Assembly: GCA_051867895.1 (NCBI GenBank) | Contig: JBJDZH010000011.1 | Location: 82,540-146,539 of the forward strand | Source of the DNA: Eubacteriales bacterium | GTDB taxonomy: Bacteria; Bacillota; Clostridia; Oscillospirales; CAG-272 | Length of the DNA: 64,000 nt | Direction: 5' to 3' | Shown: piece after piece, positions 11,665-31,698 of the stretch | Position numbering within the stretch: the first letter of the stretch is position 1 | How the letters are laid out: every line of letters starts with the position of its first letter | The notes under the pieces: model-generated | What the model saw: only the letters and a program-made list of their open reading frames with translations | Database searches by the model: none | Told to the model about the DNA's origin: nothing | Made by a program: the position numbers and the translations under genes

Positions 11665-11902
11665 TTTTGATGAATCCGTATGTCTATACAGGCGCTTCTC
11701 CTTTTTCCCGGTCCGGAACCGGAAACAGTCCGGTGCAAAACGATCTTATTATATATATAACCAATATAGCCGGAGGGGCATGCCGTTTTTTCCCTGCTGG
11801 GGATACGGCTGGTACAGCCGCCACGGTAGGATGCCGGATATGCCGCGGTGCGCGGCTGTCCTGCGCACGTGTTCCCATATCACAGTAAAGGTCTGTTCGC
11901 TT

Positions 11903-13810: not shown

Positions 13811-13811
13811 T

Positions 13812-14540: not shown

Positions 14541-14740
14541 AGCCGGGAATGCACGGCGGTTCCCCGGCAGTATCCTTTCGCCCGCTTTTTTGCGCCGAGC
14601 GCGTTTGTGCGTGAAGGATTATAATCCAACTTGAAATACAGTCGTCATCCTCACGCGAAAGAGACTGCCCTGTGCCGGACAGGATCTTTCAAACATTATT
14701 CGTCCGCGCCCTCCGCGCCGGACGCTGGAGATGCCTTCCG

Positions 14741-15556: not shown

Positions 15557-15610
15557 TACGGCGCGCCCGGCATTGTCCGGAGCCCCGTTTCATGAAAAAA
15601 AGGACCGAAC

Positions 15611-17104: not shown

Positions 17105-17107
17105 GAA

Positions 17108-18604
17108 ATGGCAGAGCCTATGAACGATAAGAACACACAGCCGCCGCTCAAAACCGAAGAGGAGAGCGAGGGCGTTTCCATCCGACCGTTTCTGGAGGCG
17201 ATCCTCCGGTTCTGGTATGTGATCCTGATCCTGGCGCTCCTCGGCGGCGCTCTCATGTTCTGCAGAAGCTATGCCCGCTACACGCCGGTGTATCAGTCCT
17301 CCGTCACCTTTACCGTCCATACGCAGGAGATCAGCTCCTCCGGGATCGGCATGACGTCGTATTCCTTCGCGTATAACCGCGCGACCGCCAAGCAGCTTTC
17401 CTCCACTTTCCCGAATATCATCAAAAGCAACATCCTGCAGGATATCCTCTGCAATGATCTCGGGATGTCGTACCTTCCCGTGTCGCTGTCCGCCGCTTCC
17501 GTCGCCGGCACGAATATGTTTACTATTACGGCAAAGGGAAACGATCCGCAGCTCACCTACGACGTGCTGCAGTCCGTTATCCGGAACTATCCCGCCGTGG
17601 CGGATTACGTTATCGGAAACACGGAGCTTGTAATTCTCAGCGCTCCCGAGATCCCGACGGAGCCGTCCAATGTACGCGGTTCCCGCTCCCAGTTTCTGAA
17701 GGGCGCCGTCGCCGGCGTTCTCCTCGGGCTTCTGTGGGCGCTGGTCTATGCGATTCTGCGCCATACGGTGAACACGCGCACCGACATCCGGCAGAAGCTC
17801 GGGCAGAAGTGCGTCGGCGTGCTGCCGCGGGTCAGCTTCAAAAAATACGGAAAGGATGTCAGCCGCAGCGTAACGGTTACGAATCCTCTGGTCGGCGACG
17901 GCTACCGCGAGGCGGTCCGCGCCCTTCGCAATACTGTCCTGAAATCCGCCTCGAATGGCAGCAAGGTCATCATGGTTACCAGTACGGCTCCCTCCGAGGG
18001 AAAAACGACGACAGCCGTCAATCTTGCCCTGTCGATTGCCGCGATGAAGAAAAACGTAATCCTCGTCGACGCGGACATGAGAAGCCCGAGTGTCCGGAAA
18101 ACACTCGGCGTCAAGCCGCTTGAATTCGATCCCTCCGACCGGCAGATCGTGAAGATCGCGCGCTTCAGCTTTCCGGATGACGTCTCGCTGTCCGTGATGA
18201 ATTTCAATACCGCCCGCTTTCGGCTGTGGAACATCGCGCGGCACGACAATCTCAGCTCCGTTTTTGCGATCCTGCGCAAAAACTATGATTTCGTGATCGT
18301 CGATACCTCTCCCGTCGGGTTGACTTCCGAGGCAGCCGTCGTTGGGAGCGTCTCCGACTGCGCGCTCCTTGTCGTAAGGCAGGATACCGTGCGTACCAAC
18401 CGCATCTGCGCCTCCATCGACAGTATGCAGTCGTCGGACGTGAAGCTGCTCGGCTGCGTTCTCAACGACGCGTCGGAAAGCGCCCTCGGCGGTCATGGCT
18501 ACGGCTACGGCTACGGATATAAATACGGTTACGGGTATCACTACGGCTACGGCTATAGAAGCAAGTACGGCTACGGTTCGGCGTCCGGCGGAAAGACGGA
18601 GTGA
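17108..18604 (+). CDS. Wzz-domain / BY-kinase fusion, copy 2
   Basis: Same architecture as copy 1. Walker A is PSEGKTTTAVNLA, A' is ILVDADMRSP and B is FVIVDTSP. The C-terminal GY-repeat tail is GYGYGYGYKYGYGYHYGYGYRSKYGYG. Confidence 0.85.
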   Translation: MAEPMNDKNTQPPLKTEEESEGVSIRPFLEAILRFWYVILILALLGGALMFCRSYARYTPVYQSSVTFTVHTQEISSSGIGMTSYSFAYNRATAKQLSSTFPNIIKSNILQDILCNDLGMSYLPVSLSAASVAGTNMFTITAKGNDPQLTYDVLQSVIRNYPAVADYVIGNTELVILSAPEIPTEPSNVRGSRSQFLKGAVAGVLLGLLWALVYAILRHTVNTRTDIRQKLGQKCVGVLPRVSFKKYGKDVSRSVTVTNPLVGDGYREAVRALRNTVLKSASNGSKVIMVTSTAPSEGKTTTAVNLALSIAAMKKNVILVDADMRSPSVRKTLGVKPLEFDPSDRQIVKIARFSFPDDVSLSVMNFNTARFRLWNIARHDNLSSVFAILRKNYDFVIVDTSPVGLTSEAAVVGSVSDCALLVVRQDTVRTNRICASIDSMQSSDVKLLGCVLNDASESALGGHGYGYGYGYKYGYGYHYGYGYRSKYGYGSASGGKTE

Positions 18605-18623
18605 ATCCTGGAGCGGGGCATCC

Positions 18624-19097
18624 ATGCATAGAGATCAGGCATCCGAAAATAAAGACAGGGTTCTCACAGACGGCGAGCTTTTGACGCTTTTGCAGGACTC
18701 CGGGGGAGAAATCCGGCTTGCCGTCACCGGCTCCAGCATGGCGCCGCTTTTGAAAAACGGAAAAACGACGGTCGTGCTGTCCGGCAGTTTTACGCCCTCC
18801 CGCGGCAGGATCCTGCTGTACCGTCGGGCGGACGGCTCTCTGCTTCTCCATCGCGTGAGAAAGGTACGCCGGGACGGCTGTCTACTCATGAACGGCGATG
18901 CGCAGTCCTGGTGCGAGACGATCCGCCCCGAACAGGCGGTCGCAGCAGTGGTCGGTATCGATTTCGGAAAAGGAAGAATCAAATACAACGATCCGCTGCT
19001 TTGCGCGTGGGATTTTCTGTGGTACTTTACCCGCCCCGTGCGCCCGCAGCTGTTTCGTTTTTTCGGCAGGATTCGCAAGAGAAGCGAAGGAGATTGA
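18624..19097 (+). CDS. S24/S26-family (signal-peptidase/LexA-like) serine peptidase
   Basis: GSSMAPLL (nucleophile Ser context), LLHRVRKV (candidate Lys) and MNGD. Start chosen at MHRDQ (18624); the longer ORF overlaps the preceding gene. Confidence 0.6.
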   Translation: MHRDQASENKDRVLTDGELLTLLQDSGGEIRLAVTGSSMAPLLKNGKTTVVLSGSFTPSRGRILLYRRADGSLLLHRVRKVRRDGCLLMNGDAQSWCETIRPEQAVAAVVGIDFGKGRIKYNDPLLCAWDFLWYFTRPVRPQLFRFFGRIRKRSEGD

Positions 19098-19099
19098 AA

Positions 19100-20401
19100 T
19101 TGTCAGAAAAAAGCACAAAAAAGAAGCTGTCGCGCGGGAAGATCGTTCTGATCGCGGCGGCGGTGCTGTTATTGCTTATACTGATCCCCGCGGCGGTCAT
19201 CGTGGGGCGGCTTTGGGTAAATTACAGCACGCTTTCCTATGAAAAACACCGTCCGGTCGAACGGACGGACGAATACATCATGCCAGACTATCCCGACGTT
19301 ATCCCCGGCGCGCCGGACGCGCCGCCGGAGGACAGCTCTCTGCCCGCCGGAACGGAACCGCCGGAGACTGTGCCGCCCGCGGAGACAACGGGAGCGGCGG
19401 AAACGACGGAGCCGCCGGAAACAACGGAACCTCCGGAGACGACGGCGCCCCCGCCGCCGGCAACCTCCGGAACAGAGGCGCCCGCGACGAATCCGCCCGA
19501 AACGCTTCCCCCTGTAATCAACGATCCGCCGGGAACCTCGGCCCCCTATACGCCGCCGTCCAATCCCGACGCGTCCTTTGCCAATTCTGACAGAATCGTC
19601 AGCGTGTACGGAAAAACGCCAATCTACAAAGTCACGCAGAAGGACAAGAATGTCAAGAATATTCTCGTGCTGGGCACTGATTCACGCGACGTTACGACGG
19701 ACCGGGGACGGAGCGACACCATGATTATCGTTTCGTACAATTCCGAGAAGGGAACGGTGAAACTGACATCGCTTTTGCGCGACTCCCTGGTACCGATCGA
19801 GGGCTATGACTGGAACCGCATCAATACCGCCTACTTCTTTGGCGGCGTCGGACTCGCGGTGAATACGGTCAATCAGATCTATGATCTGGATATTCAGGAT
19901 TTTGTCGTGATCGACCTTAACGGAGCGGCGGATTTCATCGACTATATCGGCGGAGTCGACGTCACCCTCACCGCGGCGGAGGCGGAGCTGTACAGCGCTT
20001 ATACCGGCAGGAAGATTTCTGCCGGACTGAATCATATGGACTCCACGCTCGCCATGCTGCATATGCGGAACCGCAGCTCTGACAACGATTTCGGACGGAC
20101 AAGACGGCAGCGGGACGTGATTTCGGCAATTGCCGCGAAACTCATCAGTGAAAAATCCGTGTCGGAAATATACGATATCACCAATTACGCGTTTTCGCTC
20201 ATCAAAACGAATATTTCCGCCACATCGCTGGTCTCCCTTGCCGCCTCGGTTCTCTCCCATGGCGCATCCCTGAAGATTGAGACTGCCAACGTGCCGTTCA
20301 GCGACGCCTATCAGTTTGCCTGGTACAAGGGTATGTCCATCATTTCCTTTGATTTGCAGGACGCCGCGAAACGGCTCGGCGAGTTCCTGTACGATTCCTG
20401 A
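19100..20401 (+). CDS. LytR-CpsA-Psr (LCP) family glycopolymer ligase
   Basis: TTG start 7 nt after AAGGAG. TM anchor, a Pro/Thr/Glu-rich linker (TEPPETVPPAETTGAAETTEPPETTEPPETT), and the LCP core ILVLGTDSRDVTTDRGRSDTMIIVSY...LLRDSLVPI. Confidence 0.85.
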   Translation: MSEKSTKKKLSRGKIVLIAAAVLLLLILIPAAVIVGRLWVNYSTLSYEKHRPVERTDEYIMPDYPDVIPGAPDAPPEDSSLPAGTEPPETVPPAETTGAAETTEPPETTEPPETTAPPPPATSGTEAPATNPPETLPPVINDPPGTSAPYTPPSNPDASFANSDRIVSVYGKTPIYKVTQKDKNVKNILVLGTDSRDVTTDRGRSDTMIIVSYNSEKGTVKLTSLLRDSLVPIEGYDWNRINTAYFFGGVGLAVNTVNQIYDLDIQDFVVIDLNGAADFIDYIGGVDVTLTAAEAELYSAYTGRKISAGLNHMDSTLAMLHMRNRSSDNDFGRTRRQRDVISAIAAKLISEKSVSEIYDITNYAFSLIKTNISATSLVSLAASVLSHGASLKIETANVPFSDAYQFAWYKGMSIISFDLQDAAKRLGEFLYDS

Positions 20402-20407
20402 AGTCAT

Positions 20408-20450
20408 CCCCCCGCGTCCGGCTTTGCCGGACGCGGGGGGGTGTGTTTTT
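20408..20450 (+). terminator. strong intrinsic terminator ending the capsule operon
   Basis: CCCCCCGCGTCCGG / CCGGACGCGGGGGG stem with a 4-5 nt loop, followed by GTGTGTTTTT. Confidence 0.8.
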
Positions 20451-20571: not shown

Positions 20572-20600
20572 TTGCAAATACAAACGTTCTGTGCTACAAT
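20572..20600 (+). promoter_or_regulatory. sigma-A-type promoter of the RRE/peptide/rSAM operon
   Basis: TTGCAA (20572-20577), a 17-nt spacer, then TGcTACAAT (hexamer 20595-20600), in an AT-rich island. Confidence 0.5.
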
Positions 20601-20791: not shown

Positions 20792-21139
20792 ATGACGGAC
20801 GGTGAGTTATACCAATATCTCAAGGACAGCCCCGCGCCTGCGGCACGGCTCCGTTACCGGATCCGGGACGGATACTGCGTGCGTGATTTCTGCGGCGAAA
20901 CCCTTGTGATCCCCGTCAGCGGAGAAGCGATCGCCGGACAGCAGATGGCGATCCTGAGCCCGGGCGGCAGGCTTCTCTGGGACAGGCTGCAAAGCGCGCA
21001 GACCTTTGCGGATCTGCTGCTTGCCCTGCTCAGCGAATACGAGGTCGAGCGGGAAACCGCCGCGGCGGATATCCATGAATTTCTCTCAGAGCTGGATTCT
21101 CATAAATATCTGATGGTTGAAAAGGAGCCGGAAAGATGA
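20792..21139 (+). CDS. PqqD-family protein (RiPP recognition element-type peptide chaperone)
   Basis: RYRIRDGYCVRDFCGETLVIPVSGEAIAGQQMAILSPGGRLLWDRLQSAQTFADLLLALLSEYEVERETAAADIHEFLSELDSHKYL fits the PF05402 pattern. The start is uncertain; in-frame ATGs also occur at 20714 and 20606. Confidence 0.8.
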   Translation: MTDGELYQYLKDSPAPAARLRYRIRDGYCVRDFCGETLVIPVSGEAIAGQQMAILSPGGRLLWDRLQSAQTFADLLLALLSEYEVERETAAADIHEFLSELDSHKYLMVEKEPER

Positions 21140-24100
21140 AGAAACGTTTCTGTGCAATACTGATGACTGCCGCCACACTGTTTGCGGCGCTGCCCACGGT
21201 CAGTTTACCGGCGCGCGCGGCAACAGTCTACAGTGACAGCGACGCAGAATATGTATCTCTGCCTGTCACCATCCGCGACTACGCGGGCGACGGCATGCTG
21301 TTTGAGTGGAACGAGCTGGGTAATACCGGCGATCAGACAATCGGCGGCTCCACCGTGCTTCCCATTGTGAAGCATACCACGCAGGCAGGCGGCGGCGCGT
21401 ATACTGCCACGGCGGGCGACGGCTATGTCCGCTATACGTCTACCTCCACTGGTATATACATCACCTATACGATAAGCGGCGGCTATACCCGTACCCAGAT
21501 GCGCTATGCTGTGGTGAAATACCGCACTAATGGTGGTTATACTTCTCAGCCTACCATCGGTCATCGGTGGAACAATGGCGGAAACAATAATTATGTGAAT
21601 TTCCCGACAGACGGATACAATCAGCCTGAGTTCAAGACTGTCATCAAAGATTTGGGAGAGGGCAGCGATACAGTATCGCATGTGACCATCTATCCCCGTC
21701 TCGCTTCCGGCAACTATATCGATATCGCGGAGATCGCGTTTTTCTCCAGTTTGTCGGATGCGAATAGCTATGCCAGCGGTACGGTAACAGGCGGCGATGT
21801 CTACCATCACGGCAGCACAAGGGGCTACGGTCTGCTGCAGACTGTTGCTGCGGATCATTTCAACGATTTGACGGACAGTGCCGCTATCTCCGGCACGACG
21901 CTTACGGAGAACGGCACATGGAACTCTGCGGAGGTAACGACCAGTACCACCACGCTGAACAGCGGTGCGCTCCAGACACTGTACGGCTGCTATGTCCGTA
22001 CCGATCTGGTTGAGCCGAAGCTGGGCGCCAACGGCAAGCCTGTCTATACCGAGGCGGCTGTCGCCTATCTGGCAAACTATATGGCGAAGACGCTTCCTGT
22101 GGCATGGCAGAATGTCGACGGCACCTACAATATGTGGTACGTCATGGGTACCAAGCTCTTTAACGACAGCAATGTTTTTGTGGGCACGGGCGGCACCGCC
22201 ACCAGAGACCTGGCGACCGTTCTGCGCAGCATCATCACCGGCGGTCTCGGCAGCTACGCGGAGACAAAGGCAAAAACGCTCAGTCAGGTCACGGACTGCA
22301 CCACTTATTTTGACGCGGCATATTTCCTGCTGCACAACACCTTTACGGACAATCCCGGCTACGGCGTGACGGTGCCCGAATACCGGACCGTCAATCTGGT
22401 CAAGAAAACGGTGGACGGAAAGTCCTATTACGTTTACAATTCCGCCTTTGACGGCACGGTATATGACACGACAAACGGCGTGATCTACAATTCGCAGACG
22501 GATACCATCACGACCCGGGAAGGTACTACATACGTTCGCGGCAATTTGCAGCCGGAGAGCCGCTTTGACCCGATCGGCGCACTCGGCAGCGGTGCGTACT
22601 ACGGCTTGAACGGCAACCCATACGTAAGTATTGTCGGGAATGCCAGTGTGCTCAACTATTACAACAAAACCAACTACAACCTGACCCTCGAAGGACACGC
22701 CCAGTTTATCTTCTACGAGGATGACGATCTGTACTTCAACTTCACCGGCGACGACGACGTGTACCTGTACATCAACGGTGTGCGCGTGCTGGACATGGGC
22801 GGCGCGCACGCGATCTCGAAGTGCGGCATCTCTCTGAATAGTGTCAAGGATCTCTGCGGTCTGAAGGACGGCGAGGTGTACGACTTCGACTTCTTCTACA
22901 TGGAGCGGCACGGTACCGCTGCGAACTTCGGTTTGGAGACCAATATCAAGATCGTGGATCCGTCCATGCTGACCAAAAAGAACGCGTACCAGAAGGGAAC
23001 GAACGTCGGAAACTTCGGATACGTCGATCCGAGCATTCCTGTGTCCTATGGATTTGCACTGACCAATAACGGCGAAGCGAAAATTGAGGAGCTGACCTTC
23101 CGGGATAACGACATCGGTGTATATCTGACGAAGGATGCCATCGCTCTGAACAGCGAGACCAACATCCTGCAGCTTTCCGCCCGGGTGACCGATAAGGACG
23201 GCAAGGAGAAAGTCTCCTATGCCGCCGGGAATCTGACGGAGGATATCCTGAAGCAGCTGCTGCTCGCGGGACTGGAGATCGGAGATACCATTGAGATCGC
23301 CGGCTTCCAGTATACGATCCCCACTGCCGCGTGGACGGATGAAAAATTCACGAACACGGTTTACACAACGGCGATCTCCTATGGCAACAACGCTTCGCAC
23401 CGGACGCTGAACGGACTTGCCTCCTGCACCGTGCAGCAGCAGGAGTATTCTTTTGAGCATCTCCACTTCTATGAATGGGTGGGTAAAGGCGTGACTGTCA
23501 CAAAGGATGAGCTGATCGCCGCCGTAATACAGGCGGGCGTTGCGAATCCGGGCACGACTGTCCAGCTCTGCTCTCCCTCCGGCAATACGAGCGATGCGGG
23601 TATCAATCCCCGCGCCGCGTATACGGAAGGCGGCGGTATCAAGTACACCGGCGTTGTGACCGGCGCGGACACGTATTACTATAAGGTAGGCATTTACGGT
23701 CCCGTCGCCGTCACGATATACAGCTACGACGTGGCGGACAATGTGTACGTTCTGGACTACGGTCTGCCGGTGGAGCTGAACGGTCAGGATTTCGGCCTGC
23801 TTGTCAATGATACGCTGACGCTCATCGACAATCCCTATGCGACTACTGCGAGTACGGTGGGCATTACCAGCTCAACCACCAACTACGGCATGTTCAGCTG
23901 GAATGCGCCGTCGCTGAAATATACCCTGACCAACTTCATGAATGGTGAGGATAACGCACTTGTCACCGTGCAGGTGCTTGAGAACGGCGCGACAGAGCTG
24001 ACAAAGGCCACCGGTGTGCTGATGGAGGAGACGGTGCGTGTCATTCCCGCCAATGTGGTGTACTATGAGGACGATTTCGCCGGCATTACCTATATCGGCA

Positions 24101-25692
24101 CGGATAAGAACGGCTGGGTGCAGTACCGCTCCGAGGATTCATACGGTAATGAACAGAGCGCGGATCAGGACAGCTCCTACGGCTCCGATCCGAACTATGC
24201 AGCGGACAAGAAAACGACCTACACGACGCTGACGCTGGATACCAGCAACCTGAACACGTTCCAGACGGACGCCATCAACTACCTGAACAGTTATCTCGGA
24301 CTGATCGAAGGCGACGCCTCCAACGGAACGCTCAGCGGACTGGTCGTTAAGGAAACGGAGGATGTCCTGAGCTTTGAGTTCTGTGGTACCGGCTTTGAGA
24401 TTGTCAGCCGCACGACTCAGTACGATTACGCTGTCGTCTCCGTCAAGGTGGAGCGCAGGAACGCGGATGGCACCTATACCGTTGTCCGGCAGTTCCCGGT
24501 CATCACCGAAAGCAAGGGCGGCGATCTGTATCAGGTGCCGATCATCTCTGTCACCGGTCTGGAGCGCTCCGCGTACCGGGTCACGCTGAGTGCCTTCGGC
24601 AGCACGGCTACCAAAACGCGCGTACTCTATATCGACGGTGTACGCATCTATGAGCCGATCCAGGGACTGGACGAGGTGCGCTATTACAACGCGGACGAAC
24701 AGAATGCGGTATTCCTTGAGGTCAAGTCCCTGATCCAGAATGGTCAGGCGATTTATGCGGATATCTCTGATACGGACGGCGGCACAATTCTCGGGTCCGG
24801 CACGACGGTAATCGAAACGACGGACGATAGCGGATTGGTGTTGAGGAAAGCAACGAGCGTCGATGAGTACATGACATTCGGACCGAACAACGAACTGTAT
24901 CTGAACGGTTTTTTCACTACGCCAGTTCTTGCACTGTACCTTTATCCCGACAGCACGGTACCGGAGAGCGCCCGCACCGTTGAGATCGGCGCGCATCGCA
25001 AGGCAGATTCGTTATTCTACGACAATAGTCCTGCCACTCTTGTGTATGGCAGCACGGCAGCGGACATTCTGGAAATGACGCACGTGTATACCGTTTCCAG
25101 CGGGACGGAGCAGTATTATGAACTGAACGTAGAGAATCTTGTCCAGGATGAAAAAAACCGCTACCTGCTTCTGGTCGGCACGAACGAAAAAGAGGCCTCG
25201 AGTTTGAAATCACTGGCGCTGACGAACCTGAAGGTCAGCGGCTACAGCGTCAGACTGGTCGAGCCGGAGACAGCGGATGCCGCCGCGGCGAACGACCTCG
25301 CTGCAAGTCCGGCTGTGGCTGCCGTCATGTCCCTGCGCAGTCTCAGAGCCGCCTCGATGCCGAAGCCCGAGGAGCCTGTCGTTCCGGTGAATGAAAATCT
25401 GACGGTCACCTCTGCGGCTTTGATGGCGGACAACGTTGTTTCCGGCAAGTTTGCGATAGCTGCGGTTAAGGCAGGCGCGGACGCCGTGAAGCTGACGGTA
25501 GTGGACGCCGCCGGCAATGAAGTGGAGCTCGCCCGCAGCGCCTCAACGACAAAGGATGGTGTAGTCACCTTCCAGGCGATGTGGAAGGTCACCGGCAGCC
25601 GCGGTGATGTGCTTCGCTTTACTGTTCGCGTCTATGATGCAGACGGACTCGCCTCCGTCAATACGATGGACGTCACCGTCACGATCAAATAA
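21136..25692 (+). CDS. 1518-aa secreted protein with fibro-slime/PA14-like domain
   Basis: Signal peptide MKKRFCAILMTAATLFAALPTVSLPARA. The fibro-slime motif is FNFTGDDDVYLYINGVRVLDMGGAHA...DFDFFYMERHGTAANFGLETNI (about 22678-22950). AAAGGAG RBS, and the ATG overlaps the PqqD stop (ATGA). Confidence 0.75.
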   Translation: MKKRFCAILMTAATLFAALPTVSLPARAATVYSDSDAEYVSLPVTIRDYAGDGMLFEWNELGNTGDQTIGGSTVLPIVKHTTQAGGGAYTATAGDGYVRYTSTSTGIYITYTISGGYTRTQMRYAVVKYRTNGGYTSQPTIGHRWNNGGNNNYVNFPTDGYNQPEFKTVIKDLGEGSDTVSHVTIYPRLASGNYIDIAEIAFFSSLSDANSYASGTVTGGDVYHHGSTRGYGLLQTVAADHFNDLTDSAAISGTTLTENGTWNSAEVTTSTTTLNSGALQTLYGCYVRTDLVEPKLGANGKPVYTEAAVAYLANYMAKTLPVAWQNVDGTYNMWYVMGTKLFNDSNVFVGTGGTATRDLATVLRSIITGGLGSYAETKAKTLSQVTDCTTYFDAAYFLLHNTFTDNPGYGVTVPEYRTVNLVKKTVDGKSYYVYNSAFDGTVYDTTNGVIYNSQTDTITTREGTTYVRGNLQPESRFDPIGALGSGAYYGLNGNPYVSIVGNASVLNYYNKTNYNLTLEGHAQFIFYEDDDLYFNFTGDDDVYLYINGVRVLDMGGAHAISKCGISLNSVKDLCGLKDGEVYDFDFFYMERHGTAANFGLETNIKIVDPSMLTKKNAYQKGTNVGNFGYVDPSIPVSYGFALTNNGEAKIEELTFRDNDIGVYLTKDAIALNSETNILQLSARVTDKDGKEKVSYAAGNLTEDILKQLLLAGLEIGDTIEIAGFQYTIPTAAWTDEKFTNTVYTTAISYGNNASHRTLNGLASCTVQQQEYSFEHLHFYEWVGKGVTVTKDELIAAVIQAGVANPGTTVQLCSPSGNTSDAGINPRAAYTEGGGIKYTGVVTGADTYYYKVGIYGPVAVTIYSYDVADNVYVLDYGLPVELNGQDFGLLVNDTLTLIDNPYATTASTVGITSSTTNYGMFSWNAPSLKYTLTNFMNGEDNALVTVQVLENGATELTKATGVLMEETVRVIPANVVYYEDDFAGITYIGTDKNGWVQYRSEDSYGNEQSADQDSSYGSDPNYAADKKTTYTTLTLDTSNLNTFQTDAINYLNSYLGLIEGDASNGTLSGLVVKETEDVLSFEFCGTGFEIVSRTTQYDYAVVSVKVERRNADGTYTVVRQFPVITESKGGDLYQVPIISVTGLERSAYRVTLSAFGSTATKTRVLYIDGVRIYEPIQGLDEVRYYNADEQNAVFLEVKSLIQNGQAIYADISDTDGGTILGSGTTVIETTDDSGLVLRKATSVDEYMTFGPNNELYLNGFFTTPVLALYLYPDSTVPESARTVEIGAHRKADSLFYDNSPATLVYGSTAADILEMTHVYTVSSGTEQYYELNVENLVQDEKNRYLLLVGTNEKEASSLKSLALTNLKVSGYSVRLVEPETADAAAANDLAASPAVAAVMSLRSLRAASMPKPEEPVVPVNENLTVTSAALMADNVVSGKFAIAAVKAGADAVKLTVVDAAGNEVELARSASTTKDGVVTFQAMWKVTGSRGDVLRFTVRVYDADGLASVNTMDVTVTIK

Positions 25693-25704
25693 GGAGCGCG
25701 GAAT

Positions 25705-25923
25705 ATGAAAAAGCCATACAGCAAACCGCAGATTGCAGTGGAGACCGTCCGGCTCGACCATCCGGTCGCAGGCGGATGCATCGCGGATTTTGAGGATGTG
25801 AACGCTCTTGTGGGGATGGGCTACTTCGGGGACGATATGGGTTGTAAAACGGAGTGGATCGACAACGGCAACCACGATACCATCTGCTATCACAGCAATG
25901 TTCAGGTTGCGTTTCTCTCCTGA
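25705..25923 (+). CDS. 72-aa Cys-containing small protein; candidate RiPP precursor
   Basis: AAGGAG lies 7 nt upstream. The sequence is MKKPYSKPQIAVETVRLDHPVAGGCIADFEDVNALVGMGYFGDDMGCKTEWIDNGNHDTICYHSNVQVAFLS. It sits 9 nt from the next gene and carries YxxPxI, GG, three Cys and a C-terminal Ser. Confidence 0.5.
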   Translation: MKKPYSKPQIAVETVRLDHPVAGGCIADFEDVNALVGMGYFGDDMGCKTEWIDNGNHDTICYHSNVQVAFLS

Positions 25924-25931
25924 CCGGAACC

Positions 25932-26759
25932 ATGGCGGTGTTTGAAGCGGAGCTGCAGATCGCCGGGATGACCTTCCGCATAGACGCCCCCTTCCGCATC
26001 ACTCTGCCGGAGTCCTTCCGTCCGTTTCAGCGGACGGAAGGAGCGTCCGGCGAAATTGACTGTCAGATCACGGTTCATGTCGGCAGCATGTCGGATTTTG
26101 CCGTCAGAAATACGGATATCGTGCAGAAGTACCACTGGAGAGACGCGGAATATGTCGTGCGGGTGGAGTCCCCAGGACGCCCGGACGAGATCCGCCTCTT
26201 TATTCCCGAGGCGTACGCGGAGAGCTTTGCGCGCAGCGCGAACTGGCTTCTCTACCTCGCGCCGGAGCGTGCGCTTCTGCGCGGAGGACGGATCGTTCTG
26301 CACGCGTCGGCGGTCGTCCGGAACGGGCAGGCGGTCGTTTTCACTGCGCCGTCCGGCGGGGGCAAATCCACGCAGGCGCAGCTGTGGCAGAAGTACCTTC
26401 ATGCCGAGCCGATGAACGGGGACAAGATCGTTCTCTATGCGGCGGGGGACGCCCTGATCGCCAGCGGAAGCCCGATTGCGGGCAGCTCCGGGATCTATCG
26501 GGATCTGCAGGCGCCGGTGCGGACCATCGTCCGCCTGGAGAAAGCGCCGTTCAACCGGCTCACGCCGCTGTCCGCGCGCGAGTCACTTCTGCTTCTCTAC
26601 GGAGAGGCGGTAAAGAGCCGCTGGGACGAACGCTTCAATCAGAGACTGCTCTCCGCTCTGGAACCCATGACCGCTCTGACCGAGTATTACAGATTTTCCT
26701 GCCTTCCGGAGCCGAGCGCGGCTGACTGCCTGCTTCGCCGGATAGAGAACCCTTCATAA
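25932..26759 (+). CDS. HPr-kinase-like P-loop protein (HprK C-terminal-domain homologue)
   Basis: LHASAVVRNGQAVVFTAPSGGGKSTQAQLW, with the P-loop at 26349-26372. No clear RBS, so the start is uncertain. Confidence 0.65.
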   Translation: MAVFEAELQIAGMTFRIDAPFRITLPESFRPFQRTEGASGEIDCQITVHVGSMSDFAVRNTDIVQKYHWRDAEYVVRVESPGRPDEIRLFIPEAYAESFARSANWLLYLAPERALLRGGRIVLHASAVVRNGQAVVFTAPSGGGKSTQAQLWQKYLHAEPMNGDKIVLYAAGDALIASGSPIAGSSGIYRDLQAPVRTIVRLEKAPFNRLTPLSARESLLLLYGEAVKSRWDERFNQRLLSALEPMTALTEYYRFSCLPEPSAADCLLRRIENPS

Positions 26760-26794: not shown

Positions 26795-29281
26795 ATGAGA
26801 AGGAATCAAAGATTACGCCGGCTTCTGACCCTTGTTCTGGCAGTGCTCTTTGCCGCGGCGCCGCTGCCGGTGTGCGCGCAAAGCAGCGCCGGCTGGGCGT
26901 TTGCCTCCGACACGGAGATCTATTGGGTGCAAACGGACGATTCACAGTACACGAACGAAGATCTGCGTGCGCAGGTGCAGCTCTTTGCACAGGAGCTGCA
27001 GGCAAAGAACCTGACGGCGTCCGTGCCGGGCATTACCTATGGCGTGCAGTCGGCGGCGGGCGATCATGATATCGTCCTGATTCTGGATTCCTCTCTCGGG
27101 ATCGCCGCCGAGGGCTTCCGCCTGGAAATCAGCGGTGGGCAGCTTCTGGTGAACGCCTCCGACGCGGATGGGCTGTTTTACGGCTGCCGCTTTGTCGAGC
27201 AGACCCTTCTGACCGGACGGGATCTGAGCCAGGTGTGCGGCGTTGTGAACAGCCCGGATTATCCGGAACGGGCGTTTTTCCTGGACTGCGGACGCAAGTA
27301 TTATTCTCCCGAATGGATCAAGAATATGATCCGGGAGATGTCCTGGTCGAATATGAACGCCATCTACCTCCATTTCTCGGAGGAAATGGGCTTCCGCCTG
27401 GAGAGCAAGACCTATCCATGGCTGGCAGGCGGCGACAACACGCTCTGCGTCGGTGGGGCGAGCGCAGCGGACGCGGATGAGAACAACAAGTACATCACAC
27501 AGGAAGAAATGCGTGAGATCGCAGAGGTCGCGCGGCTGTACCATGTGGAGATCATTCCCTCGCTGGACAGCCCAGGGCATATGAACTATGCCGTCAAAAA
27601 ATACAATGCGGTAAACGGCTCCGATATCGGGAACTATTTCCACTATAACGGGAAAACTGCCATCGTTCAGGGATCCGGTACGGAGACGGCGCAGAAGAGC
27701 TATTCCCGCGGCATCGACATTTCCAATCCGGAGGCGCGCACGTTCGCGCAGAACCTGTACCGGGAATATGCCGCGTTCTTTGCTGAGCTTGGCTGTACCA
27801 AGTTTGACATCGGCGGCGATGAGCTTCTCGGTTGGGGTTCTGCGGTTGTCTCCACCTCATCCGTGTCCAGGTGGCAGCAGCTGGATCATTGGAAAACCTA
27901 CGCGCAGCAGAGAAGCGGAAGCAGCAAAGCCGTCGCCTACGACGCGTTCATGTATTATATGAACGATATCTACGATATCGTCAAAGGCTATGGCTACACC
28001 TCCATCCGCATGTGGAACGACGACGCGCTCCGTACTGCGGATACCGGCTGGAATCAGGTCGTCACCCTGAACGAGGGGTTTGAGATCCAGTACTGGACGC
28101 CAACCGCTAACAACAGCAAAAACAACATCAATTCCTATCTGAACGCCGGATACGACGTCTACAACTTTCTGAATTCCTATAACTACTATGTACTCGGAAA
28201 GGTACACGATGGAACCGGCGATTATCCGGGCTGCACGCCGGAGCGCATCTACATGAACTGGGCGCCGAATATCTTCACTCCGTATGGCGGGAGCGCCGCC
28301 GATACGTCGATCACCGATACGCGTGTCAAAGGCAGTGCTTTCTGCGTCTGGTGCGATCAGCCCAAGACGGAGGGCGAAGTTGTCGTACGGGCAACCGTTC
28401 TGCCGCGCCTGCGCGCCAACGGCGCCAAGGCGTGGGACGCCGATCTGCAAAGTTCACTTTCCTACAGCGACTGGTATGCCCGTCAGGAGAAACTCGGCGA
28501 CGCGCCCGCCAATCTGCCCGCAGCGCCGGAAATTCAGGTGTACATATCACCTGACCTGACGGCATTGAAGAAGGCTGTCGCCGAATATGAGAGCATGGAC
28601 GGCGCCCTGTATACGGAGGAGAGCTTCGCGCTGTATACGGAAGCAGCCGAAACGGGAAAAACGGTTCTGAACAGCAAGAGACCGACGCAGGAACAGGCGG
28701 ATGCCGCGACCTCCGCACTTGAGGCAGCAAAGGCAGCGCTGCGTCTCTCTACCAGCATCGATTATGCGGCGCTGGACGCAGAGCTTGCCGCCTTTGACGC
28801 TGTGAGTGCCGCAGATTATACTGCGGAGACATACACCGCCTACAAGGTGATGGCGGAGAGCGCGCGCCTGCTGCGCAGCCGCACGGATGCGACTCAGGAA
28901 GAGATCGATGCGGTGGCGGACCGTCTCGCTTATCTGAAAAAGCAGCTTCGTGCTGTCGACGCAATCACCGGTGAGAACTGCATTCTGTCATTTGCCTCGA
29001 TGTCTTCCTATGCGATGCGTGGCAAGGTCTTTATCTTTGCCGTCACTGTCCTGACGGATGCCGAAATCGATCACTTCGAGATATATGACGAGGCAGGAAG
29101 CCGTGTTGATATCTGTTACGCAATCTGGAATAAAGTGAATCCGAGAACGCCCGAAAAGCGGAGTGTTCAGATTCGCGTCCGCGCGGAGGTTTTCGGGCAG
29201 CATACCTACACCGTCTACGCGATTCGCGCGGATGGAACGCGTTCTCCCGACATGAAGTCACTGACAGTACTGGTCAAGTAA
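26795..29281 (+). CDS. secreted GH20 beta-N-acetylhexosaminidase with C-terminal helical (FIVAR-like) repeats and an Ig-like end
   Basis: Signal peptide MRRNQRLRRLLTLVLAVLFAAAPLPVCAQS. ERAFFLDCGRKYY, IIPSLDSPGHMNY, and the catalytic pair in FDIGGDELLGW (D-E codons 27818-27823). Confidence 0.85.
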   Translation: MRRNQRLRRLLTLVLAVLFAAAPLPVCAQSSAGWAFASDTEIYWVQTDDSQYTNEDLRAQVQLFAQELQAKNLTASVPGITYGVQSAAGDHDIVLILDSSLGIAAEGFRLEISGGQLLVNASDADGLFYGCRFVEQTLLTGRDLSQVCGVVNSPDYPERAFFLDCGRKYYSPEWIKNMIREMSWSNMNAIYLHFSEEMGFRLESKTYPWLAGGDNTLCVGGASAADADENNKYITQEEMREIAEVARLYHVEIIPSLDSPGHMNYAVKKYNAVNGSDIGNYFHYNGKTAIVQGSGTETAQKSYSRGIDISNPEARTFAQNLYREYAAFFAELGCTKFDIGGDELLGWGSAVVSTSSVSRWQQLDHWKTYAQQRSGSSKAVAYDAFMYYMNDIYDIVKGYGYTSIRMWNDDALRTADTGWNQVVTLNEGFEIQYWTPTANNSKNNINSYLNAGYDVYNFLNSYNYYVLGKVHDGTGDYPGCTPERIYMNWAPNIFTPYGGSAADTSITDTRVKGSAFCVWCDQPKTEGEVVVRATVLPRLRANGAKAWDADLQSSLSYSDWYARQEKLGDAPANLPAAPEIQVYISPDLTALKKAVAEYESMDGALYTEESFALYTEAAETGKTVLNSKRPTQEQADAATSALEAAKAALRLSTSIDYAALDAELAAFDAVSAADYTAETYTAYKVMAESARLLRSRTDATQEEIDAVADRLAYLKKQLRAVDAITGENCILSFASMSSYAMRGKVFIFAVTVLTDAEIDHFEIYDEAGSRVDICYAIWNKVNPRTPEKRSVQIRVRAEVFGQHTYTVYAIRADGTRSPDMKSLTVLVK

Positions 29282-29343: not shown

Positions 29344-30432
29344 ATGGAACTGAAAAGCTACATATTTCACAAAGGTGCAGCCCGTCATATTCCGGTCAGC
29401 GGGACGTTTGAGCTGACGCCCCGGTGTAACCTGCAATGCGAAATGTGCTATATCCGCATGAGCTCCGCTGAACAGAAGGAGGCGGGACGTGAGCGGACGG
29501 CGGACGAATGGATCGCGCTGGGCAGAGAAGCGGTGGATGCGGGCATGGTCTATCTGCTGCTGACAGGGGGAGAGCCGCTGCTCCGTGCAGATTTTCCGCA
29601 GATCTACCGTGAACTGGCGAAGATGGGGGTCGTGCTTTCCCTGAATACGAACGGAACACTCCTGACGGACGGGATTCTCGAATGCCTCTGCGAGCATCCG
29701 CCGGAAAAGGTGAACGTCACCCTGTACGGTGCGTCCGCCGCAACGTATGAAAAAGTCTGCGGAAGCGCAGCCGCCTTTTCACGCGCATCGGACGCGGTCC
29801 GCAGAATGAAACAGGCGGGAATTCCCGTTTTCATCAATACCACCTTCACGAAGAACAACGCCTCTGATATGGAGGATATCGTTTCGTTTGCCCGGGAAGT
29901 CAAGGCGCCCATCCGCATGACGAGCTATGTTTTTCCTCCAGTCCGCTGCGCCCGGGAGGCAAAAACGGACTGCCTGCTCCCGCCTGATGCATACGGCGCT
30001 TTGGCGGCGCGGTTCGATCTTCTTACCTTAGATGCGGAGCAGAAAAAGCGGCGCAGACAGACGATTGACCATATTATGGGAAATATGGAGCCCCCCCCCG
30101 CAGATGAGAAAAGCAGGGCATCGTCCTGCATGGCGGGGAGAGGGGCATTCTGGATCACGTGGGACGGAAAGCTGCTGCCCTGCGGTATGCTGCCTGCCTC
30201 AGCGGTGGAGCTGGGGAACAGTACTTTCCGTGAAGCATGGGAGCGCCTGCCGCACGTCATGAACCGGATACAGTTACCCGTCGAATGCAGCACCTGCCGC
30301 GCGAGGCGGATATGTTCGGTGTGTGTTGCGGTGACGCAGAACGCAGAGGGCGATCCCTCCGTGCCTCCGAGGGATCTGTGCAGGTACGCACAGTCCTATT
30401 TGTCCGGCTTCCTGAAAAGCGGGGAGCGGTAG
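29344..30432 (+). CDS. radical SAM enzyme with C-terminal SPASM domain
   Basis: CNLQCEMC (29425-29448), GGEPLL, SSCMAGRGAFWITWDGKLLPCG and CSTCRARRICSVC (30286-30324). Confidence 0.9.
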   Translation: MELKSYIFHKGAARHIPVSGTFELTPRCNLQCEMCYIRMSSAEQKEAGRERTADEWIALGREAVDAGMVYLLLTGGEPLLRADFPQIYRELAKMGVVLSLNTNGTLLTDGILECLCEHPPEKVNVTLYGASAATYEKVCGSAAAFSRASDAVRRMKQAGIPVFINTTFTKNNASDMEDIVSFAREVKAPIRMTSYVFPPVRCAREAKTDCLLPPDAYGALAARFDLLTLDAEQKKRRRQTIDHIMGNMEPPPADEKSRASSCMAGRGAFWITWDGKLLPCGMLPASAVELGNSTFREAWERLPHVMNRIQLPVECSTCRARRICSVCVAVTQNAEGDPSVPPRDLCRYAQSYLSGFLKSGER

Positions 30433-30486: not shown

Positions 30487-31698
30487 TTATGGTATGATGT
30501 CGTACAGCTTCAAAAGCTCAATGCGCTCTTTGCCCAGCCGGAGAGAGTCTGCGGCACTGTTGTTCTGGTGGGCGCACATTTCGGATGCGTAGTGGAAAAT
30601 GCGCTGCGCCCAGGCAACCGGCAGCAGAACCGGATGCTTTTTCAGATACACATACTTTTTCTCCATGTACGCACGCCCGGGGAAAACGGAACGAAGAACG
30701 CCGCGGCGTTTCCCTGTGCGGCTGGAATTCACAGCGTTCAGCGTGACAGTCGAGGAATGGAGACGTGCCTCGTCGGAGTGACCGTATATTCCGCCGGCAA
30801 ATACATCGTGCAAAAGCGGCTCAATGGAAACGTGCGGCTTTTCCCATGGCGCCGGGAGCGAAATGTTCATGCCGAGCGCAGTGCGGTCGATTTCAAATAC
30901 AGCGGCTGCAAAGGTTGCGGCGTGTACGCTATCACACTGGCTGTGCAGCAGAGTCCAGTCAATCCGGTCGTAATAGGCATGCGCCCAGAGACCGATGTCA
31001 TAGAACTGCCGAAGACCTACACCGGACAGGACGAAATGCTTGTAGGCGTGCAGCAGAAGATAGAGCAGATGCTCGTGAGGCTGCATGGTCAGATAACCGC
31101 TGATCTCCTCACAGCCGGCGGGGAGGTGCGCAAAGAAACGGTTGATCTCGTTATGCGCGTCTTCGGAGAAATCAAACAGACGCCGGTGCAGTTCGATATA
31201 AAGTGGACTGCCTTCCTTTTTATAGGAGATTTCATCTGCATCCTCCAGCTGCTGCGGAGGGCAGGCAGTATGGAGTCCGTTTTCGAGAAGGACGGCGTGG
31301 CACATGCTGAATTCGGCGTCGGGGATGAAGAGGTCGTCGTCTGCGCTGATACGGTGATCCGGAAGCGGATAGAGACGGCTGCAAAGCTGCCCCTTCACCA
31401 CAATGGGGTGGAGCCCGGCGGCACGCAGTTTCCGGTACAGCGCCGAAAATTCCGCCGCACGGACAGCCTGCGTCAGCACCTGTCCGATCACCTGTCGTTT
31501 TACCGCGGCGAAAAGGGCTGCGTTAGCCTGGGCGGCGTCTGTTTCTCGTACAGTCTCAAAGACGATCGGCAAGAGCCTTTGCTGATCGGCAAGCGCAAAG
31601 ACGGACGGATAATCCGCCCCGGCGGGAGACGCGGACGTGCCCTGCACTGCGGCACGCATGATCGCCAAAAGATCGCTTTCAGTCTGTGTGAGACTCAT
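30487..31698 (-). CDS. PF14907-type (NTP_transf_5) putative nucleotidyltransferase
   Basis: LHPIVVKGQLCSRLYPLPDHRISADDDLFIPDAEF...YIELHRRLF matches the family's lKG..l...Yp....R...DiDllv ... veLH pattern. Confidence 0.7.
   Translation of the reverse strand: MSLTQTESDLLAIMRAAVQGTSASPAGADYPSVFALADQQRLLPIVFETVRETDAAQANAALFAAVKRQVIGQVLTQAVRAAEFSALYRKLRAAGLHPIVVKGQLCSRLYPLPDHRISADDDLFIPDAEFSMCHAVLLENGLHTACPPQQLEDADEISYKKEGSPLYIELHRRLFDFSEDAHNEINRFFAHLPAGCEEISGYLTMQPHEHLLYLLLHAYKHFVLSGVGLRQFYDIGLWAHAYYDRIDWTLLHSQCDSVHAATFAAAVFEIDRTALGMNISLPAPWEKPHVSIEPLLHDVFAGGIYGHSDEARLHSSTVTLNAVNSSRTGKRRGVLRSVFPGRAYMEKKYVYLKKHPVLLPVAWAQRIFHYASEMCAHQNNSAADSLRLGKERIELLKLYDIIP

Follow-up and report, generated by a model that had tools for sequence, protein, structure and literature searches.

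A gene for a 72-aa peptide, found within a 64,000-nt stretch of DNA from a member of the Eubacteriales (contig JBJDZH010000011.1; the whole stretch is hereafter called the window), is real and under strong purifying selection, and it is strictly co-located with genes for a kinase, a radical SAM (rSAM) enzyme, an RRE and a giant secreted protein. On sequence evidence, we consider it probable that the gene encodes a precursor, the substrate on which an uncharacterised modification cassette of RiPP type acts in gut and rumen Clostridia. This assignment is supported by a family of small, conserved members, by pN values far below pS, by the absence of a confidently predicted fold and by the recurrence of the cassette from locus to locus, and it is weighed below against readings in which the peptide serves the giant protein or is a lasso precursor.

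A conserved family of small peptides

The reading frame opens with the ATG at 25705, closes with the TGA at 25921-25923 and specifies the product MKKPYSKPQIAVETVRLDHPVAGGCIADFEDVNALVGMGYFGDDMGCKTEWIDNGNHDTICYHSNVQVAFLS. Its size alone would be meaningless, because 145 ORFs of at least 40 aa occur within 19 kb of the G+C-rich window DNA. A chance ORF was ruled out by the conservation among homologues together with pN/pS, and the same ORF is independently called as a gene in public assemblies. The gene sits in the middle of an operon, 3' of the 4.6-kb gene for the giant protein, and inspection of the window sequence revealed neither a promoter of its own nor a terminator 3' of it. An earlier, sequence-only reading of this DNA had placed the AAGGAG motif 7 nt before the ATG and the end of the ORF 9 nt before the HprK-like gene; both distances are in fact 8 nt, the second counted from the stop codon to the kinase ATG at 25932. 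The overlap between AAGGAG and the TAA of the preceding gene suggests that translation of the giant and the peptide may be coupled. Coordinates are collected in Table 1.

Table 1 Features of the peptide cassette and its flanks in the window (numbered from the first nucleotide of the window)
Feature	Position	Strand	Remarks
S24/S26-like peptidase (GSSMAP motif)	18624..19097	+	PF00717, 21.5 bits, just under cutoff; upstream transcription unit
Terminator-like hairpin	20405..20443	+	18-bp stem, 15 G-C pairs, T tail; divides cps/LCP genes from cassette
Promoter-like site	20572..20600		3' of the terminator-like hairpin
Discrete PqqD-like RRE	20792..21139	+	First operon gene; PF05402, E=5.5e-11; called gene in public assemblies
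Secreted PA14-domain giant protein	21136..25692	+	1518 aa; ends 12 nt before the peptide ATG
Private C-terminal Ig-like domain of giant	25393..25689	+	~100 aa (giant residues 1420-1518); no curated model above cutoff
AAGGAG ribosome-binding site	25691..25696	+	8 nt 5' of the peptide ATG; overlaps giant-protein TAA (25690-25692)
Precursor-like peptide gene	25705..25923	+	72 aa, stop codon included; conserved family, purifying selection, called gene
Putative leader, residues 1-24, MKKPYSKPQIAVETVRLDHPVAGG	25705..25776	+	Conserved N-terminal positions; alternative boundary between I21 and A22
Y5-x-x-P8-x-I10	25717..25734	+	Lasso-type YxxPxL RRE-recognition motif; Y5 and P8 invariant
Cys25, first conserved Cys	25777..25779	+	C in 111/113 and 105/105 sequences
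Cys47, second conserved Cys	25843..25845	+	C in 111/113 and 105/105 sequences
D58-T-I-C61-Y62-H63 motif	25876..25893	+	Holds invariant third Cys, C61, at 25885-25887
Terminal Ser72	25918..25920	+	Candidate phosphorylation site; S in 113/113 and 105/105 aligned sequences
HprK/ScmC-like P-loop kinase	25932..26759	+	Weak TIGR04249 ScmC and TIGR04352 HprK_rel_A matches
Secreted GH20 beta-N-acetylhexosaminidase-like protein, FIVAR domain	26795..29281	+	Called gene in public assemblies
Ig-like domain common to giant, at GH20 C-terminus	28982..29278	+	E=4.7e-27, local HMM
rSAM/SPASM enzyme	29344..30432	+	PF04055, E=4.8e-25; weak SPASM match, 17.6 bits
PF14907 (NTP_transf_5) nucleotidyltransferase	30487..31698	-	E=2.3e-37; convergent with operon; accessory

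Sequence searches returned 28 close homologues, each of 72-76 aa, and more distant relatives amounting to 142 cluster representatives at 50% identity. A search with the family profile gave 306 matches, with more than 300 clusters at 90% identity; all members are small proteins (53-122 aa). P0034, a 3806-aa protein carrying 29 profile matches, was discarded as a false positive, being an unrelated tandem-repeat protein. In the family alignment, M1, K2, Y5, K7, P8, E13, L17, I21 and A22 vary little or not at all, whereas the central stretch is hypervariable. The positions on which the sequence-only reading had staked its proposal are indeed conserved: among 113 diverse members Y5, P8, C61 and the terminal Ser never change, and C25 and C47 scarcely do. 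A set of 105 sequences likewise keeps Y5 and P8 throughout, and A22 and Y62 show little or no variation across these 105-113 members. Position 10 of the RRE motif is I, V or L. Around the third Cys, C61 is found in 113/113 members, Y62 in 111/113, H63 in 95/113 and D58 in 83/113, and the last residue is Ser in 248 of 257 family members.

The translation shows YSKPQI at residues 5-10, G23-G24 (25771-25776) immediately before C25 and Ser as the final residue, just as that reading had described; its Cys positions 25 and 47 were also right, and the third, given as 62, is residue 61. The Gly-Gly pair is lineage-specific, with G23 in only 13 and G24 in 35 of the 113 members, and what persists near the boundary is I21-A22-x-[G/S/N/A]-C25. 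The proposal of a leader ending at Gly-Gly thus holds in so far as the boundary would lie within residues 21-25, and fails for the site itself. A double-glycine leader with C39-type export was rejected on these counts, the ABC exporters of loci L001 and L028 having no C39 domain. A lipoprotein or Sec signal, to which the lipobox-like MKK...AGG-C pattern might point, was likewise set aside, since residues 9-22, with conserved E13 and D18, appear to offer no hydrophobic core.

Among orthologues, mean pN/pS was 0.31/0.84 over codons 1-41 and 0.11/0.72 over the final 15; synonymous sites are saturated and non-synonymous change is low. The median charge is +3 over the N-terminal 12 residues and -8 over the remainder. 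Two AlphaFold2 runs yielded no confident globular fold (pLDDT 63 and pTM 0.36 with 105 sequences), the single helix spanning residues 29-37, and this absence of a confident fold fits a peptide that serves as an enzyme substrate. Pfam and NCBIfam scans of the 113 members returned noise only, and a profile of 105 members matched nothing in the PDB at E<=10, QHNDH gamma subunits included. The family is covered by no Pfam, NCBIfam or PDB entry.

The enzymes, the giant protein and their genomic setting

The neighbours named in the sequence-only reading were borne out by profile searches: a PF05402 PqqD protein, a Radical_SAM protein with a SPASM-type Cys motif, a kinase matching HprK and a PF14907 protein. 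The best NCBIfam match of the PqqD-like protein is lasso_PqqD_Bac (30 bits against a cutoff of 80). When its single sequence was compared with the PDB, the kinase gave P-loop hits only; a profile of its family found HprK/P as the best match (2qmh and 1jb1, E=5e-4), and both the P-loop SGGGKST and D164, which aligns to the Asp of the 'ADD' motif in the catalytic region of HprK, are invariant in that family. Kinase orthologues in other loci match PF27840 ScmC. The translation of the rSAM gene contains CNLQCEMC at residues 28-35 and the SPASM-type C-terminal motif CX12GX4C...CX2CX5CX2C...C. Its best PDB matches are SkfB and PqqE, and every NCBIfam match falls below cutoff, with the heme enzyme AhbD on top, PapB at 67 bits against 340 and SkfB at 65 against 300. 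The enzyme has no N-terminal RRE of its own, which makes sense of a separate PqqD protein.

In ~20 independent loci, the peptide gene begins 11-22 nt 3' of a giant-protein gene, once overlapping it, and all loci examined have a giant gene as the direct 5' neighbour of the peptide gene. This coupling to the giant had gone unmentioned in the sequence-only reading. The same ~20 loci provide what that reading had called for, small orthologous ORFs beside homologues of the RRE, rSAM and HprK-like genes. The order giant-peptide-ScmC/HprK-like-rSAM, with PqqD nearby, recurs in the window and in L001, L004, L006, L012-L017, L019-L025 and L028; the near-universal kinase gene directly follows the peptide gene in nearly all loci, and the rSAM gene comes after it. 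Searching in reverse, from the giant-protein side, recovered the same cassette with a family peptide. Locus L020 contains two giant-peptide pairs and one enzyme set, and L018 reads giant-peptide-giant, with no enzymes on its 12.5-kb contig. Next to the cassette lie capsule or EPS genes in the window and in L001, L017, L019, L021, L025 and L028. The hosts are gut and rumen Clostridia. Butyricicoccus porcorum BB10 was the only cultured carrier found, and its locus is decayed: the giant is reduced to a C-terminal fragment, the GH20 gene is broken, and PqqD and rSAM are absent.

The giants carry Sec signal peptides and the peptide has none; no LPXTG signal was detected in any giant examined. GH20 is kept in the close clade and is replaced by GH2 in L017. 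Both the giant and the cassette GH20 end in an Ig-like domain of ~100 aa that was absent from all remaining ORFs of the window and the loci, and for this reason the product of the peptide gene may be a partner of these two proteins. Three giants are without the domain (those of L017 and L018 and the second giant of L020). A region of 300-500 aa common to the giants was dismissed as a system-specific module, as it also matches generic DUF5979/DUF7601 surface-protein stalks; the system-specific part of the giants is the terminal 100-aa domain.

Further genes accompany the cassette in some lineages. The S24-like peptidase, a candidate leader peptidase, is an accessory component; L001, L024 and L028 have orthologues beside PqqD or the nucleotidyltransferase, L024 having the peptidase and no nucleotidyltransferase. 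Orthologues of the nucleotidyltransferase, which matched nothing among PDB sequences, were found in L001 and L028 only, as was an ABC exporter with ABC_membrane and ABC_tran domains. Peptidase, nucleotidyltransferase and exporter are absent within 10 kb of the cassette in most loci.

A proposed pathway and the competing readings

In the reading that we prefer, the basic, conserved N-terminal part of the peptide (residues 1 to about 21 or 24, with Y5-x-x-P8-x-I10) would be a leader bound by the discrete PqqD-like RRE, by analogy with lasso B1 systems, and the RRE would present an acidic core of ~48-51 residues to the two enzymes encoded just downstream. The rSAM/SPASM enzyme would act on Cys25, Cys47 and Cys61, most likely to form intramolecular thioether-type cross-links, and the HprK-like kinase would phosphorylate the side chain of Ser72, in the manner of PadeK and PsmK on lasso precursors. 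In the window and some other lineages, the PF14907 nucleotidyltransferase could then add a sugar to the Ser phosphate, as PsmN might suggest, and the S24-like peptidase could cut the leader off near I21-A22-G23-G24-C25. The ABC exporter would complete the set in L001 and L028. There is biochemical precedent for several of these steps. With few demands on the rest of the sequence, HprK-type kinases phosphorylate lasso precursors at the C-terminal Ser, and PsmN is needed for the addition of hexose to that Ser phosphate in pseudomycoidin. The RRE BsfB1 speeds up the kinase BsfK, and the motif that the RRE recognises, YxxPxL, lies at positions -17 to -12 of lasso leaders (PMC10368454).

Several observations count against a precursor. 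The rSAM enzyme belongs to no curated peptide-maturase family above cutoff, a position in mid-operon without its own promoter or terminator is unusual for a RiPP precursor gene, and conservation of the last 15 residues on a par with the leader is not typical of RiPP cores. A Cys3His metal site is another possible reading of C25, C47, C61 and H63, and in L018 the giant-peptide-giant arrangement comes with no enzymes on the 12.5-kb contig. With no peptidase or exporter within 10 kb, most loci offer no candidate enzyme for leader removal or export.

The same modifications could end in a different product. Here the matured peptide would be a dedicated partner of the giants, either a cross-linked small subunit or a tether that joins them via the Ig-like domain to capsule or wall, and not a free antimicrobial or signal; we hold this to be possible, if rather unlikely. 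It agrees with the preferred reading on every biosynthetic step and differs only in the role of the product. The invariable closeness of peptide and giant genes and, in the window, a Shine-Dalgarno sequence overlapping the giant stop codon speak for it, as do the single enzyme set for two giant-peptide pairs in L020, the terminal domain confined to giant and GH20, the giants' want of an LPXTG signal and the capsule/EPS genes beside the window cassette and several others. QhpC offers a precedent, in which a leader-dependent rSAM enzyme makes three Cys thioethers, the leader is cut, and ABC export and assembly with large subunits follow. Against this, the peptide profile found no match in the PDB, not even among QHNDH gamma subunits, and only L001 and L028 have an exporter. 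The terminal domain is missing from three giants, the close clade has two domain-bearing proteins to one peptide, and the internal stalk common to the giants is of the generic DUF5979/DUF7601 type. The more specific proposal is that the peptide is the working part of an unrecognised system serving the giants: cross-linked, phosphorylated (in some lineages phosphoglycosylated) on the terminal Ser, freed of its leader and exported, it would join or bind the Ig-like domain, either as a cross-linked small subunit or to tether the giants to capsule or wall independently of sortase. This is a shade less likely again.

It is improbable that the peptide is an unmodified accessory protein of the giant (a Cys3-His metal chaperone, an inhibitor or an immunity-like factor) while the enzymes act elsewhere, for example on the giant before export. 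Anaerobic sulfatase-maturing enzymes are a precedent for modifying a protein before it is exported. Tight gene pairing, conservation at both ends of the peptide and a metal site that C25, C47, C61 and H63 might provide would all suit such a protein, and many longer members have DxDxDG-like acidic inserts that resemble Ca-binding loops. In 18 of the 113 members, however, H63 gives way to Y, N, F or Q, and no confident fold is predicted. PqqD-type RREs bind short leaders, and the invariant Y5 and P8 fit the lasso RRE motif; an invariant C-terminal Ser beside an HprK-type kinase has direct biochemical precedent; and the Sec signal peptides are on the giants, not on the peptide. That the peptide is a lasso precursor of the paeninodin/pseudomycoidin type is scarcely credible and, for practical purposes, refuted. 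The YxxPxI motif, a discrete PqqD with lasso_PqqD_Bac as its best NCBIfam match, the HprK-like kinase, the PF14907 nucleotidyltransferase and the C-terminal Ser all recall such systems, and with Y at -17 the core would start at the invariant A22, which in the window makes D28 core position 7 and E30 core position 9. Yet neither an asparagine-synthetase-like cyclase nor a transglutaminase-like B2 protease was found among the ~20 loci and the window ORFs examined. An rSAM/SPASM enzyme stands in place of the lasso enzymes, the core would measure ~48-51 residues, and acidic residues at core positions 7-9 are confined to the window clade and are not family-wide.

If the preferred precursor reading is true, the cassettes would define a new and widespread RiPP-like family of gut and rumen Clostridia (142 clusters at 50% identity, over 300 at 90%), in which an HprK-type Ser kinase and an RRE and leader motif of lasso type are united with a Cys-acting rSAM/SPASM enzyme, modules previously known apart. 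It would also supply a concrete substrate for a large group of orphan HprK/ScmC-like proteins. The pairing with giants and the private domain, often beside capsule loci, raise the prospect that in abundant, poorly studied gut anaerobes modified peptides may anchor surface enzymes or act as their subunits.

Comparison with known systems

Literature searches for the gene combination of the cassette found no paper describing it; the closest systems each resemble a part of it. SynChlorMet (Scm) and HPr-rel-A cassettes co-encode an HprK-related P-loop protein with rSAM/SPASM and PqqD-family proteins. Of the Pfam and NCBIfam labels, ScmC suits the cassette kinase best, but the scores lie far under the equivalog cutoffs (24.4 bits against 125 for TIGR04249 ScmC, 87.5 against 400 for TIGR04250 ScmE and 74.5 against 400 for TIGR04251 ScmF), and the Scm systems belong to different phyla. 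Our literature searches found no description, for Scm cassettes, of coupling to a giant protein or of a peptide family with a C-terminal Ser.

Among the phosphorylated or phosphoglycosylated lasso peptides of Firmicutes, the paeninodin (PadeA/PadeK), pseudomycoidin (PsmA/PsmK/PsmN) and Bsf systems likewise have a discrete PqqD-type RRE and a YxxPxL-type leader motif. Phosphorylated lasso systems also share an HprK-family kinase and an invariant C-terminal Ser in the precursor, with a nucleotidyltransferase in some clusters and an ABC exporter in some. Where lasso systems have a cyclase and a B2 protease, this cassette has an rSAM/SPASM enzyme and three Cys, an S24-like peptidase replacing the transglutaminase-like one in some loci; the core would be ~50 residues long instead of 15-25, and the peptide gene is embedded behind that of a giant secreted protein. 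The sactipeptide and ranthipeptide systems (PapA/PapB, SkfA/SkfB) are similar in their SPASM-type rSAM enzyme and in the RRE-mediated leader recognition and Cys-containing acidic core that are proposed here. Their RRE is fused to the rSAM enzyme, whereas here it is a separate protein; no curated maturase family (PapB, SkfB, StsB or others) was matched above cutoff, the kinase is an obligatory neighbour, and no existing model covers the precursor family.

QhpC, the gamma subunit of quinohemoprotein amine dehydrogenase, is a small, mostly coil protein with an N-terminal leader, encoded beside large partners. Its multiple Cys are cross-linked in the cytoplasm by the leader-dependent rSAM/SPASM enzyme QhpD, and the leader is cut before export, with QhpE as the protease and QhpF as the ABC exporter. 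The present peptide, small and predicted to be mostly coil, with a putative leader, three Cys and a gene beside that of a large protein, appears QhpC-like in outline. The two differ in that they have no sequence similarity, that the cassette contains neither the QhpG tryptophylquinone machinery nor a subtilisin-like QhpE, and that the proposed partner here is a giant glycosidase/adhesin-like surface protein of Gram-positive anaerobes.

The ORF and its family

The ORF runs from the ATG at 25705 to the TGA at 25921-25923 and encodes a 72-aa product, MKKPYSKPQIAVETVRLDHPVAGGCIADFEDVNALVGMGYFGDDMGCKTEWIDNGNHDTICYHSNVQVAFLS. It is present much as the sequence-only reading had described it, with YSKPQI at residues 5-10, G23-G24 directly preceding C25, and Ser72 as the last residue. 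That observation is confirmed overall, with minor changes: the third Cys is at position 61 rather than 62, AAGGAG lies 8 nt rather than 7 nt before the ATG, and the gap between the stop and the next gene (ATG at 25932) is 8 nt rather than 9 nt. An ORF of such size is no evidence alone, because 19 kb of this G+C-rich DNA contain 145 ORFs with 40 aa or more. The same ORF is annotated as a gene by public gene callers.

A search of 5.8 billion proteins returned 28 close homologues of 72-76 aa (49-94% identity), and their alignment shows no variation at M1-Y5, K7, P8, I10, C25, C47, T59-N65 and S72. Searching 1.84 billion cluster representatives with a profile gave 142 small proteins, and 306 proteins in the 90% clusters matched the family profile. 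Y5, P8, C61 and S72 are invariant across 113 diverse members, and M1, Y5, P8, A22, C25, C47, C61, Y62 and S72 in a second set of 105. The terminal Ser occurs in 248 of 257 members, and most have three or four Cys. Residues 1-12 form a basic stretch (median charge +3), the remainder being acidic (median -8). Nine orthologous genes, compared with one another, have saturated synonymous sites and little non-synonymous change, with a mean pN/pS of 0.31/0.84 over codons 1-41 and 0.11/0.72 over the last 15 codons. The ORF is thus a real, conserved gene. No Pfam or NCBIfam model matched any of the 113 members, and the family profile had no match in the PDB.

One protein among the 142, P0034 (3806 aa), was rejected as a false positive. 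It is a giant protein of tandem repeats with a unit of ~120 aa (...NNVDDAPVA...EDVESIITLGYTDADSDLA.SC...), matches the middle part of the peptide profile weakly at 29 places, and was judged unrelated. In many longer members (P0042-P0072 and others) the stretch from the second Cys to the CYH motif includes a DxDxDGxxD-like acidic insert that resembles a calcium-binding loop; in the window peptide this insert is short (W51-I-D-N-G-N-H-D58).

Gene order in the window and in other loci

Features of the window and of homologous loci in other genomes (L-numbers)
Feature	Position	Remark
Capsule/exopolysaccharide genes beside cassette	window 11447-20401; L001 1-702; L017 1795-3326; L019 12482-20282; L021 1-190; L025 1-2749; L028 17121-18241	
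S24-like peptidase	window 18624-19097	upstream unit, among capsule genes
Terminator-like hairpin, strong	window 20405-20443	5' of cassette; divides capsule unit from cassette
Promoter-like site	window 20572-20600	5' of cassette
PqqD	window 20792-21139	PF05402, E=5.5e-11
Giant secreted PA14 protein	window 21136-25692	1518 aa
Private Ig-like domain, ~100 aa	window 25393-25689; 28982-29278	in giant PA14 protein; in GH20
AAGGAG	window 25691-25696	overlaps TAA of upstream gene, 8 nt before ATG
HprK/ScmC-like protein	window 25932-26759	
Secreted GH20	window 26795-29281	
Radical SAM/SPASM enzyme (rSAM)	window 29344-30432	
PF14907 nucleotidyltransferase	window 30487-31698	convergent with cassette
Single-pass membrane protein	L020 12303-12863; L021 12277-12993; L022 12318-13085; L023 12164-12898	
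270-300-aa protein	L024 11268-12179; L028 11630-12439; L020 19590-20267	

Homologous loci were collected by exact-protein look-ups, by a scan of genomes and by a reverse look-up from a giant homologue. Orthologous small ORFs lie beside RRE, rSAM and HprK-like homologues in close and distant loci alike, in keeping with the sequence-only reading. The close clade, comprising MAGs of Faecousia, Oscillospiraceae, Ruminococcus and Lachnospiraceae, keeps the order PqqD - giant - peptide - kinase - GH20 - rSAM. Distant members retain giant - peptide - ScmC-like - rSAM with PqqD nearby, and other features vary: the giant is of PA14, GH88/Big_2, DUF7601 or lipase_3 type, and GH20 is lost or has GH2 in its place. 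The giant stop lies 11-22 nt from the peptide start, and in L017 the genes overlap. The fullest version, from the reverse look-up with giant homologue P0333, reads PqqD - giant - 89-aa family peptide - ScmC - uncharacterised - rSAM - PF14907 - S24 - ABC exporter - CpsB. Separate lineages (window, L001, L024, L028) have the nucleotidyltransferase, S24 peptidase and ABC exporter again; in most loci they were not found within 10 kb, and no enzymes were found on the short contig of L018.

L020 has two giant-peptide pairs (2957-9979/10001-10267 and 13281-19184/19200-19451) and one enzyme set, a single ScmC-rSAM set; its peptides differ strongly in the middle and keep the leader, CYH motif and terminal Ser. 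The only cultured carrier found, Butyricicoccus porcorum BB10 (L011, 9237-14100), has a decayed locus: the giant is reduced to a 246-aa C-terminal fragment, an insertion interrupts GH20, the genes for peptide and kinase remain intact, and PqqD and rSAM were not found within 10 kb. Two further conserved, uncharacterised proteins recur in distant cassettes: between rSAM and PqqD a single-pass membrane protein that has an acidic linker and ends in a domain of ~110 aa, and between ScmC and rSAM a protein of 270-300 aa; the window has a homologue of neither. Elsewhere in the window, a 1344-aa ORF (211-4245, +) joins a carbamoyl-phosphate synthase large chain to a C-terminal diaminopimelate epimerase domain (residues ~1222-1337). 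This is either a fusion of an unusual kind or a pair of genes with no stop codon between them.

A candidate modification pathway

The cassette is built like a RiPP pathway, with a precursor whose leader is conserved, a separately encoded RRE, an rSAM/SPASM enzyme and a tailoring kinase; fuller versions also have another tailoring enzyme together with a peptidase and an exporter. From its single sequence the kinase can be assigned only weakly; a 12-orthologue profile has HPr kinase/phosphorylase (2qmh, 1jb1) as its best PDB match, and the orthologues all keep the P-loop and the Asp that aligns with the HprK 'ADD' region. The rSAM begins directly at its CxxxCxxC motif, without an RRE of its own, and its C-terminal Cys motif is complete. 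It reaches the cutoff of no curated family, and its best PDB matches are SkfB and PqqE.

The leader motif of the peptide, Y-x-x-P-x-[I/L/V], matches the one at positions -17 to -12 to which lasso B1 RREs bind, and the RRE of the Bsf system additionally speeds up an HprK-type kinase (PMC10368454). HprK-type kinases phosphorylate lasso precursors on the C-terminal Ser, and PsmN, an uncharacterised nucleotidyltransferase, is needed for adding hexose to the Ser phosphate. From the leader motif and the Bsf and PsmN precedents we infer four steps: PqqD would bind residues ~1-21, the kinase would phosphorylate Ser72, the rSAM would cross-link C25, C47 and C61, and, in the window, the PF14907 enzyme and S24-like peptidase would act further. 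Comparative data, as far as they reach, support the interpretation offered by the sequence-only reading in its motif residues and neighbours; its Gly-Gly leader/core junction falls away, as G23 occurs in 13 and G24 in 35 of 113 members. The conserved junction is I21-A22-x-[G/S/N/A]-C25. The leader could end at I21|A22, the lasso register, with the invariant Ala as first core residue, or at A22|G23 or G24|C25, with small residues at -3 and -1. Even when given 105 sequences, AlphaFold2 predicted no fold with confidence (pLDDT 63, pTM 0.36), which would suit a substrate peptide but is no proof of one.

Possible link to the giant proteins and comparison with known systems

Several features are at odds with a standard RiPP. 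The precursor gene lies in mid-operon, directly 3' of a 4.6-kb gene, and the last 15 residues of the peptide are conserved as strongly as the leader. A giant secreted protein accompanies every family member examined. Giants and cassette GH20s share a ~100-aa domain at the extreme C-terminus, to which Pfam and NCBIfam gave only sub-threshold Ig-like matches. A local HMM of this domain found one match per protein, always terminal, and none in any other ORF of the window or loci, a result that is partly circular because some of the sequences found had been used to build the HMM. The domain ends exactly at the C-terminus (...YTV.AYD.DG..S.....V.V.[K/R]), also in L001, L004, L006, L012-L016, L019-L025 and L028. 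LPXTG was found in none of the giants. Capsule or EPS genes adjoin the cassette in at least seven loci, with CapD, CpsB, Wzz/CpsD-like, LCP, glycosyltransferase, EpsG and KpsF/KdsC-like types; those around the window's S24-like peptidase are CapD-like, CpsB, two Wzz/CpsD-like and one LCP gene. Three or four giants are missing the terminal domain (L017 9950-10020; L018 3150-3247 and 7400-7504; L020 19080-19184). Both L018 giants and the second L020 giant end in a Pro/Glu/Thr-rich linker and a short amphipathic helix (e.g. ...LFSSFVSSLFGSIARLFGN), and the L017 giant in an acid-rich tail.

Operon position, C-terminal conservation, giant pairing, the terminal domain, the lack of LPXTG and the capsule flanks together suggest a product that works with the giant proteins, a reading that we consider rather unlikely and that has its biosynthetic steps in common with the main explanation. 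Its nearest precedent would be QhpC, the gamma subunit of quinohemoprotein amine dehydrogenase, which bears a leader and is cross-linked by an rSAM; QhpC has no sequence relation to the peptide. A RiPP-type precursor remains our main explanation. A lasso peptide is ruled out because the core is not short and neither a cyclase nor a B2 protease was found among the window ORFs examined or in about 20 loci. Assignment to the Scm cassette or to any curated rSAM maturase family was likewise rejected because the scores fall far below the cutoffs. A literature search found no paper describing this gene combination, which resembles a thioether-type rSAM module added to the tailoring module of lasso systems such as paeninodin and pseudomycoidin.
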